The notes under the pieces are model-generated. The model did no database searches. It saw nothing but the letters and a program-made list of their open reading frames with translations, and was not told where the DNA came from. Below, piece after piece: positions 11,863-17,774 of a stretch of DNA of 17,774 nucleotides. Positions within the stretch are counted from its first letter, which is position 1. Every line of letters starts with the position of its first letter. The stretch lies in the NCBI GenBank assembly GCA_051439505.1, contig JBFRWI010000068.1, positions 1 to 17,774 on the forward strand. The letters run 5' to 3'. Made by a program: the position numbers and the translations under genes. The DNA is from Hormoscilla sp. (GTDB lineage Bacteria; Cyanobacteriota; Cyanobacteriia; Cyanobacteriales; Desertifilaceae).

Positions 11863-12208
11863 CCGCCTTGGTCGGATCGTCTGACCGCCTTGGTCGGATC
11901 GTCTGACCGCTTTGGTCGGATGGTCTGACCGCCTTGGTCGGATAGTCTCCCCGCCTTGGTCGGATAGTCTCCCCGCCCGGGTCTGAGGATCTCCCCGCCC
12001 GGGTCTGAGGATCTCCCCGCCCGGGTCTGAGGATCTCCCCGCCCGGGTCTGAGGATCTCCCCGCCCGGGTCTGAGGATCTCCCCGCCCGGGTCGGATGGT
12101 CTGACCGCCTTGGTCGGATGGTCTGACCGCCTTGGTCGGATCGTCTGACTGCCTTGGTCGGATGGTCTGACCGCCTTGGTCGGATGGTCTGACCGCCTTG
12201 GTCGGATA
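11863..12208. repeat. 22-bp tandem repeat array, 15 full units plus a 16-nt partial
   Basis: Units ccgccttggtcggat(c/g/a)gtct(ga/cc) flank five identical ccgcccgggtctgaggatctcc units (11973-12082). The 22-nt period is unbroken. Confidence 0.97.
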
Positions 12209-14066: not shown

Positions 14067-15824
14067 TTACATCCTCTCCAAAACTGAAATGCCCAACAAA
14101 GACAATCCCAACTTTAGAGTTCTCGCTGTCAGGTCGCACAGCAACAAGCGGGAAGTACGCTCTCGATCTGCCGCTTTCAGAACCGGACAGCGATCGTAAA
14201 ACTGATTAAACTTCTGAGATAGCTCAAATAAATATTGACACAAGCGGTTAGGCATTAAATCAGCTTCCACAGCCAGGATAACTTCCGACAGTTGCAACAA
14301 ATGCTTCGCCAGCACCAACTCAGTCGGTTCTGACAAGAGAACTTTCCCATTTTCTGCCAATTGGGAAAAGTCAATCTCACCCTTACGACTAATCCCCTGA
14401 ATCCGGACATAGGCATAAAGTAGATAAGGTGCCGTATTTCCTTGCAGGGAGAGCATCTTATTGTAGCTAAAGATGTAATTGCTAGTGCGATTTTGACTTA
14501 GATCGGCGTATTTAACTGCACTCATGCCCACCACTTTGGCCACCTGAGCTTTGAACTCCTCAGTTTCGGTGCGATCTTCTGCCGCCAGTCGAGATTCTAG
14601 GTCAGCCCTAGCCCGCGCGATCGCCTCATCCAGCAAATCCCGCAGTCGCACCGTTTCCCCCGAACGAGTTTTCAACTTCTTACCATCTTCGCCCTGAACC
14701 AGACCAAAAGGAACATGAACCACATCTACCTGTTCCGTCAGCCAACCGGCACGTCGTGCTACCTGAAACACCTGAGCAAAGTGAGCAGCCTGACCGGCAT
14801 CTGTAACATAGATAATGCGATCGGCCCCGTCTTGGCCTATCCGATAGCGTAAAGCGGCCAAATCTGTCGTCGCGTAATTGTAGCCGCCATCGGACTTTTG
14901 CACGATCAAGGGTAATGGATCTCCAGCCTTATTCGTAAAACCTTCCAGAAAAACGCACTGGGCACCGGCATCCTCTTCGAGCAAACCTAGCTGGTCCAGG
15001 TCGGCTATCACAGCCGGTAAGAACGGATTATAGAAAGACTCTCCCCGTTCCGTTAACTGGACATCCAGGCGATCGTAAATCACCTGAAACTCTCGGCGGG
15101 ACTGGTCGCATAGCAACTGCCAGGCCCGACGGGTATCCTCAGCACCGGCTTGTAGCTGTACCACTTCTTGGCGGGAAGTTTCCTTAAATGCCTCATCAGC
15201 GTCGAACCGGTGCTTTGCCTGCTTATAAAAGGTAACTAAATCTCCCAAGTCCAGAGCGTCGGCAGTGGTCAGGGCCTGTGGGTAAGCTTCCCGCAGATAA
15301 GCGATCAGCATCCCGAACTGAGTGCCCCAGTCCCCGACATGATTGAGTCGCAGCACCTCGTGACCGCGAAATTCCAAAATCCGGGTAATGCAATCCCCAA
15401 TAATAGTAGAGCGCAGATGACCGACATGCATCTCCTTAGCAATATTGGGGCTAGAAAAATCCACGATCGCCCGCTGGGGCTTTTGCACCGGTGCCACTCC
15501 CAGTCGTGCATCTATATATATAGTATTCAGTTGGGCTTCCAAGTATGCCGGTTGGAGAGTGAGATTAATGAAGCCGGGGCCCGCGATTTCTGCTGGTGCG
15601 CACAAGTCAGAAATCTCTAGACGTTCTACTAGCTTTTGAGCGATATCTCTAGGCTTTTGCTTAAGTCGCTTCGTCAGAGACATGGCCACATTCGACTGGT
15701 AATCACCAAACTTGGGATTACTAGCTAGCACTACCATTGGGTCACATCCTGCCAACTCTTCACCAAAAGCAGCAACCAAAGCCTGCTCAAATCTAGTTTT
15801 CAGTAATTCGATCGTCGAGTTCAT
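14067..15824 (-). CDS. argS: Arginine--tRNA ligase
   Basis: 585 aa with [33 protein letters not shown] (HIGH), [20 protein letters not shown] and a terminal ERM. Confidence 0.98.
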
Positions 15825-15896
15825 AGTTCTAGCGCCTCTGCGTCGCGCACTGGGTATCGGGCCTCACATCAGGGTGCATCGATGATGCATGTAATT

Positions 15897-15949
15897 TAGC
15901 CCGCGCAGGCGGGCTTAGTTCGAGTAGCCGGGCCCTTTAGGGTTCGGGC
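15897..15949. repeat. REP-like double-hairpin repeat, copy 2
   Basis: Matches 159-211 at 48/53. It is enclosed by a 10-bp inverted repeat, agggtgcatc (15871-15880) and gatgcaccct (15966-15975). Confidence 0.85.
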
Positions 15950-15979
15950 GGCGAGGCAAATATGGGATGCACCCTCAAA

Positions 15980-16873
15980 TCATCCCCTCCAGAGACCTTC
16001 GGGGGATAGCCGCATACTCAAGTCCAGCCAACTGGAGCGAGTAATTGGAGCACTGGTTGAAATGTAGTCTACCCCAGTTTCCGCCACAGCGCGAACAGTC
16101 TCTAGGGTGACGTTACCCGAAGCTTCGATTTTAATTTCGCTCCGGTCATCCTTCTGGCGAATCAACTGCACCGCCTGACGCATCCTATCTACCGGCATAT
16201 TGTCCAGCATGATGATATCCGCAGAAGAGTGCAAAGCCTCTTCCACCTGTTCGAGGGTTTCCGTCTCCACTTCTATACTCAGGGGAAAGGGGATTTGGGC
16301 ACGGATGCGTGCGATCGCCTCTGTGATACTACCGGCGGCAGCAATATGATTATCCTTAATCATCACAGCATCATCCAGGCCCATGCGATGATTTCTGGCT
16401 CCACCTACAGCCGCAGCATACTTTTCCAGCACCCTCAACCCAGGCGTTGTTTTGCGCGTATCCACTAGCCTCGCCGGTAGGTCTGCGATTTCCTCCACAT
16501 ACCGGCGGGTGAGGGTGGCAATGCCACTCAAGCGCATTGTCAGATTCAAAGCCACCCGTTCTCCCATTAATAATGCCTCTAACCCACCAGACAAACGAGC
16601 GATCGCCTGTCCGGGAGAGCACCGGTCCCCTTCAGCTACCATTGCCTCAAACCTGACATCCCGGTCCAAAAGCTGAAACACCCGCTCTGCCACCGGCAAT
16701 CCCGCGATCGTTCCTGGTGCTTTCGCCACCCATTCCCCTCGGATCACCAGCATTTCTGGTCCTAAGAGGGCCGAAGTCGTGCGATCGCCCCTACCAATAT
16801 CCTCCAGCAACCATGATTTCAGGAGATCGTCCAAGCCTAGCCAAGGGGGTAACGCCGGCGATAAATCTAGCAT
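15980..16873 (-). CDS. nadC: Nicotinate-nucleotide diphosphorylase (carboxylating), quinolinate phosphoribosyltransferase
   Basis: Motifs LLEDIGRGDRTT, ERVALN, DTRKTTPGLR, NHRMGLDDAVMIKDNH, EVE, IMLDNM and EASGNV. ATG 16873 is preferred to the TTG at 16912. Confidence 0.96.
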   Translation of the reverse strand: MLDLSPALPPWLGLDDLLKSWLLEDIGRGDRTTSALLGPEMLVIRGEWVAKAPGTIAGLPVAERVFQLLDRDVRFEAMVAEGDRCSPGQAIARLSGGLEALLMGERVALNLTMRLSGIATLTRRYVEEIADLPARLVDTRKTTPGLRVLEKYAAAVGGARNHRMGLDDAVMIKDNHIAAAGSITEAIARIRAQIPFPLSIEVETETLEQVEEALHSSADIIMLDNMPVDRMRQAVQLIRQKDDRSEIKIEASGNVTLETVRAVAETGVDYISTSAPITRSSWLDLSMRLSPEGLWRG

Positions 16874-16970
16874 TTCAACTGCCTCCGGAACTTTTTTCGC
16901 TTTTTGGATCAAAATTTTATCGCCTCAAATCCTTGCCTGGTCAAGCTTTTCAGACATATTGACCATCCGA

Positions 16971-17216
16971 GAGCGATCGCTCTCCTCTCCGGGCACCGGT
17001 TTCCCTCAGCAGATAGCAGTCCCTAAGCTGGAACAATCGCTCCAGCACCGGCAATATTCAGATCTTGCCTGATGGTTTCGCTTATCCTTCAAGATGGTCC
17101 AAGCCTCGCCCATGGGCGAGCACTGGCGATTTCTCCATTCTTTCAACTGCCGAGGGAACTTTTAGGTTTTGTATATTAAGTTTTTGCCTCAAACCCTTAT
17201 AGGTCAAGCTTTTCAG
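16971..17216 (-). pseudogene. Degenerate copy A of the nadC 5' end plus upstream motif
   Basis: 17011-17081 aligns to 16656-16726, 17092-17163 to 16824-16895, and 17202-17216 is identical to 16939-16953. Translation KVPSAVERMEKSPVLAHGRGLDHL versus nadC-frame KVPEAVEMLDLSPALPPWLGLDDL. Confidence 0.8.
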
Positions 17217-17223
17217 CCTTCTT

Positions 17224-17419
17224 ACCCACCATAATTGCTCGCACGAGCCCCTCCGGTGAGAGCACCGGTCTTCTGAATTACATACCGGTCCAGAACCTAT
17301 AACAATTGCCACACCACCGGCAAACCTGAGAGCGCCTCCGAGGTTTACACAGGCAACTTAGCTCGGGCCACCCTCCTAGATCGTCCCTACAGCGCCCAAT
17401 TCGTGAGTTATTAGCTACC
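17224..17419 (-). pseudogene. Degenerate copy B of a nadC 5' internal fragment
   Basis: 17280-17419 aligns without gaps to 16656-16795 (offset 624). 17253-17270 matches 16611-16627. Confidence 0.75.
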
Positions 17420-17431
17420 CACCTCCGAGGC

Positions 17432-17730
17432 ACATACCGGTCCCTAAGCTGGAACAATCGCTCCACCACCGGCAATCATGAGAGCGAATCTTGTGTTTTC
17501 ACCGGCAACTCACCTCGGGCCACAACCATTTTTAGTCACTTGAGCGCCGAATTCGTGAGTTATTACCTACCTTGAGCCGACTAAAACCCGGATTTCAGGA
17601 GAAGCAGCAAGCCTCTCCCAGGGGGTTTCACCGGCGATTTATCCCGAATTTCCACCGCCTCGGGAACTTTTTTCGCTTTTTTTCAGAAAAATTTTAGCGG
17701 CTCAAACCCTTACCCAGAAAGCATTTCAGA
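17432..17730 (-). pseudogene. Degenerate copy C of the nadC 5' end plus upstream motif
   Basis: 17432-17676 aligns without gaps to 16656-16900 (offset 776), 174/245 identical by hand count. The ATG is changed to ATT and there is an in-frame TAG. Translation LPVVERLFQLRDRYV versus nadC LPVAERVFQLLDRDV. Confidence 0.85.
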
Positions 17731-17774
17731 ATTTGGAGAAAAAAAACTTCCCAAAAAACTTGAAATTGGGGTTG
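17731..17774 (+). promoter_or_regulatory. A-tract-rich upstream element of a probable strong promoter continuing past the window
   Basis: A8 (17739-17746), A6 (17753-17758) and aaatt tracts, ending in ggggTTG, which could be the first half of a -35 box. The remainder is outside the window. Confidence 0.4.

Follow-up and report, generated by a model that had tools for sequence, protein, structure and literature searches.

A helically phased, non-coding copy of the nadC 5' end before rRNA promoters of Hormoscilla: a candidate curved upstream element

Background

Curved DNA has been reported to pin plectonemes upstream of promoters (PMC6301789), and bendable upstream sequences are described as buffering the stable-RNA promoters of E. 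coli (PMC9221221). Knockdown of gyrase in Synechocystis is followed by a fall in rRNA, according to PMC9825172, where phased A-tracts near bacterial promoters figure as a long-standing open question.

The locus considered here lies in Hormoscilla sp. (GCA_051439505.1), and the window, which is the whole stretch of 17,774 nt that was analysed, is an entire contig (JBFRWI010000068.1). An earlier note on this DNA had described the region upstream of nadC as an array of three degenerate copies of the 5' end of nadC and its upstream motif, and had considered for them a DNA- or RNA-level role or a relic of repeated duplication. The helical periodicity which is the main finding of this study was absent from that note. 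No description of this arrangement was found in the literature covered, from which subscription journals are mostly missing, and the accessible part of PMC6520454 makes no mention of nadC.

Layout of the array

The features discussed below are as follows.

15980..16873, minus strand: nadC (quinolinate phosphoribosyltransferase; Pfam QRPTase_N and QRPTase_C), donor of the duplicated segment
16873-16871: ATG of nadC, placed by alignments with the paralog and with outgroups; an in-frame TTG lies further upstream at 16912
16580..16959: template of the tandem duplication, that is, nadC codons 1 to ~98 with the upstream A-tract and palindrome-like motif
16960..17216: copy A, distal, with an internal deletion and a 47-nt patch apparently converted with copy C; phase decays as chance predicts
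17224..17426: copy B, a tandem offshoot (152 nt) of the proximal copy; its loss of phase is what chance would give
17432..17650: non-coding stretch of copy C that descends from nadC coding sequence, AA/AT/TT phased at 10.75-10.8 nt in alternation with CCGG; the proposed curved upstream element
17437, 17469, 17502, 17631: CCGG sites in copy C
17550..17570: derived conserved block within copy C, in place of the HIP1 site
17560-17565: TTATTA, which is TAA TAA in the nadC frame, in 11/11 copies
17651..17730: copy C, part derived from the nadC upstream region, with phased T-/A-tracts and the AAACCCTT...TTTCAG motif
17731..17774, plus strand: rRNA operon promoter, with upstream A-tracts and TTG (17772-17774) as the first three bases of the -35 box

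On alignment, copies A, B and C all match 16582-16954 in the same orientation, as had been claimed. Copy C runs for 263 nt without gaps (17432-17694 versus 16656-16918, 71%), where 245 nt had been given at about the same identity, and a second comparison gives 300 nt at 71.7% (E 3e-36). The nadC ATG has become ATT in copy C, and the site at 16781-16788 (GCGATCGC, which we take to be HIP1) has been replaced; both losses had been reported correctly, whereas the single stop reported with them turned out to be five in-frame stops (two TGA, one TAG and two TAA).

It had also been proposed that the copies amplified or converted each other after diverging from nadC. The later amplification is supported, B being a tandem offshoot of C. 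Conversion is supported for A and C: the 47 nt common to them (17009-17055 and 17430-17476, 91%) are a variant peculiar to this genome, which none of the ten other proximal copies carries, and this fits a recent conversion. For B and C conversion is not indicated, since both motifs that they have in common occur genus-wide in the proximal copy and therefore reflect common descent. Support for the assembly comes from four public DNA runs of one study (the source sample may be among them), whose contigs tile these repeats at single-copy depth and mismatch them at 0-1 positions. Among the public runs listed as containing this DNA, none is of RNA. The two rrn operons of this genome are identical over 17651..17730, and read depth doubles from 17648 on.

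Elsewhere in the window, a palindromic dispersed repeat is located between argS and nadC (15870-15975). It has 201 BLAST matches in this genome, 35 of them of at least 80 nt, and a read depth ~300x background; a weak CRISPR-DR28 match stems from it. A 22-nt tandem repeat lies within a 147-aa ORF at ~11960-12200.

The adjoining rRNA promoter

The divergent promoter suggested for the window end is an rRNA promoter: the last 45 nt form its upstream part, and relatives continue with TTGACA, the leader and, ~210 nt later, 16S. This genome's assembly contains no assembled 16S; in two runs that hold the window, contigs tile promoter, leader and 16S start at ~2x single-copy depth, and one contig, from a run of another study, extends from 16S to a C-type copy. 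Copy C is positioned directly before the rRNA promoter, 120-340 nt upstream of the -35 box. A promoter and terminator scan of 15800-17774 gave counts at chance level. nadC and rrn stand head-to-head in many cyanobacteria: this orientation was seen in each of the four complete outgroup genomes that were inspected, and a leader or 16S motif indicates it for 30 of 53 outgroup loci.

Rearranged rrn promoters were observed in two other genomes. In G002 (L031/L032, C1:1398130-1415430), the nadC-linked operon consists of the promoter and ~70 nt of 16S followed by ~17 kb of other genes, after which come a second copy C, a promoter and a complete rrn operon. In G004, the rrn core promoter with upstream A-tracts is dispersed (L053:2785-3170 on C24, and on C1, C15, C21 and C22), beside or between copies of the palindromic repeat of window 15870-15975; from its sequence, the combination appears to be a mobile cassette with a strong promoter.

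Helical phasing of the proximal copy

The AA/AT/TT class (AT2) was taken from PMC4132750 and was tested after the spacing of ACCGG-type sites had been noticed (22, 32, 33, 21, 43 and 65 nt; the ACC-centred motifs lie at -357, -335, -303, -270, -249, -206 and -141 from the -35 box). The period of AA/AT/TT and CCGG is 10.75-10.95 nt in each of the 11 proximal copies, and their AT2 amplitudes are 20-29, each at p<=0.0025 against 400 dinucleotide shuffles; five nadC homologs reach 15-19, and the paralog of nadC 10.5. When 321,055 genome windows of 220 nt are ranked by distinct locus, this genome's two copies come 5th and 7th, and the five other loci in the top seven comprise four that are tandem-repeat-like and one (on C84) that is not. 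The nadC template is itself phased at ~10.8 nt, 16661-16880 being in the top 0.12% of genome windows, and windows over A and most of B show ordinary phasing.

Between -340 and -120, where the phase of copy C is continuous over more than 220 nt, phasing scores are 3.7-4.3 in five operons with C, against 1.0-2.4 in all 11 outgroup rrn promoters and in the copy-free glyQ-linked operon of G002 (one further locus had no -35 match). Since the outgroup promoters are not phased in this way so far upstream and the glyQ-linked operon lacks a copy in two of five genomes, the element is dispensable.

Three readings of this rhythm, as a curved element, as an array of protein sites and as a gyrase site, can overlap. 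Copy C may be an array of sequence-specific sites for a regulator on one helix face, whose spacing the periodicity would follow; the Fis sites of enterobacterial rrn promoters are the functional analogue. The ACC-centred motifs, several of them at derived sites, agree with this, as do three runs (14, 12 and 12 nt) that are invariant across the 11 copies and are longer than shuffled columns give (p=0.0002), although shared conversion tracts can produce such runs. The signal, however, is spread across all AA/AT/TT steps, variable stretches included, and its phase with respect to the -35 box varies (4.5-8.2 nt of 10.8, a third of a turn, across 11 related copies). A search for a Fis-type HTH_8 protein found no match in this genome, which is 93% complete, and we consider a protein-site array unlikely.

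As a strong gyrase site, copy C would offer phased arms to be wrapped, and negative supercoils would be pumped beside the rrn promoter. This genome encodes the GyrA C-terminal domain with its repeats, and G+C periodicity peaks in both of its copies at 10.75 nt, the same period as the E. coli gyrase motif is reported to have (PMC6379681); SELEX is also reported to enrich GC-rich motifs broken by short A/T runs (bioRxiv 10.1101/2025.10.21.683783). The period nevertheless does not separate gyrase from other wrapping proteins. The motif described in PMC6379681 spans 130 nt, with two periodic arms on either side of a non-periodic cleavage segment of 36 nt, whereas the phased tract of copy C is unbroken; in E. 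coli, according to that study, sites were located on the downstream side of rRNA operons, the upstream control site having none. We regard a gyrase site as improbable.

Two candidate explanations of the phasing were rejected. A methylase- or HIP-driven gain of RCCGGY does not apply, these words not being over-represented genome-wide, and phasing is not a general trait of stable-RNA promoters, as 55 tRNA upstream regions average the genome median. Separately, another intergenic stretch that is strongly phased (10.6 nt) without being a repeat, and that contains CCGG and A/T tracts, was seen at C84:23900-24160 of this genome (L081). It precedes a promoter-like sequence, is unrelated to nadC, has a counterpart of 86% identity in G004 (C34, L082) and has no Rfam match.

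Direction of substitutions

Majority sequences stood in for ancestors, and under the null the same substitutions were placed at random in matched base and neighbour context. The 44 substitutions leading from the nadC majority to the C majority changed the in-phase signal by +5.1 against a null of -5.3 +- 3.1 (p=0.0005). All nine gap-free copies were significant relative to the nadC majority (p<=0.0085), two G001 copies having been left out of this full-length test because of a gap. Relative to the C majority, five of the nine were significant (p<=0.002), namely those with 32-41 differences, and the four copies nearest to it showed no significant retention, at low power. As three of the five long-branch copies stand at operons without nadC, the target would be the rrn promoter region. 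The copies are related and exchange sequence, so that the tests are not independent, and the independence of lineages rests on the majority sequences and a rough tree.

Copy B, by comparison, gave -6.7 against a null of -7.3 +- 2.4. The nadC paralog and 13 distal or dispersed segments, including A and B, followed the null; none of the 13 was significant relative to the C majority and one reached p=0.04 relative to the nadC majority, and the distal pieces pooled show slight retention (z ~1.6, by arithmetic on the segment results). Changes from A/T to G/C were found at 16 of 21 sites at G/C peaks versus 19 of 51 at A/T peaks (Fisher p=0.004). Substitutions are thus random with respect to sequence features in A and B, and are not random in C. 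The earlier idea of a DNA-level role is supported by this directional signal in the proximal copy, whereas the three copies are not equivalent stacked elements, as C alone keeps the signal.

Alternatively, repeated duplication in a repeat-rich genome may have left the array as a whole as a neutral relic, which rrn gene conversion carried along. This reading suits A, B and the other distal pieces; array length and content also differ in every genome, and two operons have no copy. Random placement of the substitutions in C, however, would cut the phase by 5-10 units, and instead it rose or held. Neutral decay describes A and B and fails for C (p about 0.0005). As an account of the whole array it is very improbable, and for copy C, which on this comparison would not be a neutral relic, it is disfavoured.

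The rhythm could also be an unselected footprint, left by mutation or repair that acted periodically on DNA whose rotational setting was fixed close to a very strong promoter. On average the copies differ from each other about as much as fourfold-degenerate sites do (mean divergence 0.06-0.31), with no overall slowing, and a mutational bias in C. elegans is reported to remodel repeats to helical periodicity (bioRxiv 10.64898/2026.08.08.743475). Against this, the signal survives the context-matched nulls and the adjacent copy B decays, and the full-length retention, the near absence of small indels and the spread to a second operon would be left unexplained. Such a footprint, which would still need a positioned bent complex, is quite improbable.

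Coding capacity and RNA

Differences per nadC codon position amount to 168/154/106 between orthologous copies, against 56/33/101 in nadC; copy C has lost coding and has no codon-position bias. Every reading frame is closed in at least one copy, the 19- and 22-nt indels would disrupt any frame, and the three small ORFs over the array have no Pfam match. Copy C might instead give rise to a structured or antisense RNA, as the earlier note had suggested, or to a short leader peptide, regulating nadC. The double stop and the loss of the ATG are common to all 11 copies, and could reflect selection against a truncated NadC peptide. Folding of seven copies on the nadC-sense strand, however, gave a covariation term of +2.95, which is a penalty; the array has no Rfam match, and C is kept at operons without nadC. 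We regard an RNA or peptide role as extremely unlikely.

Origin of the rhythm in nadC

The 5' ends of outgroup nadC genes have the same phase, and synonymous shuffles retain most of it (7.6 versus 10.2 observed, means, n=51), so that part of the phase is set by the protein; 3.6 residues correspond to 10.8 nt. Short helix-induced patterns of this kind are noted in PMC4132750. The excess over synonymous shuffles is restricted to the 5' segment (mean z 0.82 versus -0.13 to 0.19, n=53). An ancestral rrn-specific phasing of nadC is not supported: the excess peaks at loci without an adjacent rrn (mean z 1.77, n=10, versus 0.56, n=30), which argues against an old rrn-specific role. What the sequences compared do show is a rhythm that was ready-made and already in the right place. 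Very strong synonymous-site phasing (z 2.6-4.7) was also observed in the nadC 5' coding regions of L087, L099, L100 and L096 (another family), three of which have no 16S start in the upstream DNA fetched.

Distribution and history in the genus

In all five genomes of Hormoscilla, which is a marine cyanobacterial genus, a C-type copy precedes an rrn promoter; matches in 56 other genomes amount to four, all short (21-40 nt) and weak. No upstream self-duplicate of nadC was seen at the 51 outgroup loci scored (two were skipped), many of which have less than 300 nt of upstream DNA or lie at contig ends, and a pattern search of metagenome contigs gave 0 matches. The simplest state, in G001 and G002, is a single tandem duplication of 16580-16959 (~380 nt) with a 19-nt deletion. 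The second rrn operon faces a gene which we take to be glyQ, and there a C-type copy with distal pieces is present in three of the five genomes (this genome, G001 and G004) and no copy in G002 and G003. The copy is present both in relatives and at other rRNA operons, two places where the earlier note had proposed to look.

Distal copies vary in number and content between genomes. The three long indels among the copies, of 19, 19 and 22 nt, are near two helical turns. A helical register of the whole array was rejected, only 10 of 28 genus offsets being within 0.2 turn, as chance gives; in this window the offsets are 152, 421, 508 and 776 nt, or 14.1, 39.05, 47.1 and 72.0 turns of 10.78.

Further rearrangements of nadC were observed. 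G002 (L033:9884-10476) and G004 (L038:5594-6191) contain an almost identical block in which a nadC fragment, copy C and an rrn promoter are fused to a hairpin and a non-rRNA gene; the nadC fragment in G004 is of the G002/G003 type, and the block suggests transfer between lineages. A second full nadC (83% identity) lies away from rrn in G001, G003 and G004 (L005, L036, L039), and in this genome only a 5' fragment of it was found (C72:41677-41817). Extra nadC matches in ten other genomes turned out to be full-length but distant paralogs, together with a single 3' fragment and a single 5' fragment, the latter in front of another 16S gene; such a 5' fragment (residues 5-37) is that of L120 (G215), in a different family.

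Proposed mechanism

On balance we favour the reading of copy C as curved or wrappable DNA that serves as an upstream element of the rrn promoter and was exapted from a pseudogene fragment, with A and B as likely decaying by-products. A wedge model estimates the net bend of C to lie within the genome's top 0.02% for a 10.8 repeat, 1.1% for the model's own twist and 8% for a uniform 10.5, and a bend suited to negatively supercoiled DNA would fit these values.

The proposed course starts from the head-to-head layout of nadC and rrn and from the one tandem duplication common to the genus, after which coding was lost in the duplicate and phase was gained and retained in the promoter-proximal copy only; a copy also stands at the second rrn operon, away from nadC. 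The starting rhythm would have come partly from the protein sequence of the NadC N-terminus and would have been sharpened once released from coding, A and B may have arisen by unequal exchange between repeats, and C presumably spread by conversion between rrn operons. The scheme predicts real curvature, together with plectoneme pinning or wrapping by RNA polymerase, HU (one HU-family gene is present in this genome) or gyrase, by which C would couple the rRNA promoter to negative supercoiling and affect rRNA output. A fuller version is possible and is put forward tentatively: a pseudogene fragment would have become a purely mechanical element, its protein-imposed rhythm sharpened by selection until it ranked with the most strongly phased non-repeat stretches of the genome, and spread between operons, pinning a supercoil or loading gyrase and setting ribosome synthesis without Fis.

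The locus offers a natural series: a coding donor, proximal copies in several diverged versions, distal copies that have decayed, and operons that have or lack the element, all of clonable length. It would provide rare comparative evidence for selection, or a directional process, acting on DNA shape and not on a motif, and would exemplify how a regulatory element of bacteria can arise from a dead gene copy.

Comparison with known systems

The cyanobacterial AT2 'structural code' (PMC4132750, PMC9825172) involves the same dinucleotide class at a period near 11 nt and, as in the nadC 5' end, is embedded in coding DNA. As described there it is diffuse, genome-wide or in core promoters, whereas here the rhythm belongs to one locus, where it was copied from a gene and then amplified. 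With the gyrase motif and the Mu SGS (PMC6379681) copy C shares the G+C periodicity of 10.75 nt, but no central non-periodic cleavage segment was seen in it and it lies upstream, not downstream, of rrn, so that it remains a candidate only. The PATCs of C. elegans, which derive from Helitron minisatellites (bioRxiv 10.64898/2026.08.08.743475), resemble copy C in that a pre-existing sequence was remodelled toward the helical repeat and co-opted mechanically; they differ in their animal chromatin, transposon origin, 10-nt period and attribution to mutational bias.

Plectoneme-pinning sequences (PMC6301789) are closer, having phased bends over more than 70 nt upstream of the start site. Their reported peak is ~100 nt upstream and genome-wide, whereas copy C lies further upstream, is far above its genome background and has a traceable origin. 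The upstream activating sequences of enterobacterial stable-RNA promoters (rrn P1, tyrT; PMC9221221) likewise place a long, helically phased bendable region before an rRNA promoter, for which a bent microloop acting as a supercoiling buffer has been proposed. They carry Fis sites, according to the same source, and no Fis-type protein was found in the present genome. Unlike them, copy C extends as far as -340, is confined to one genus and originated as a duplicated piece of a protein-coding gene, and what appears to be new, as far as sequence comparison can tell, is a phased upstream element of an rRNA promoter whose birth from a dead gene copy can be traced.
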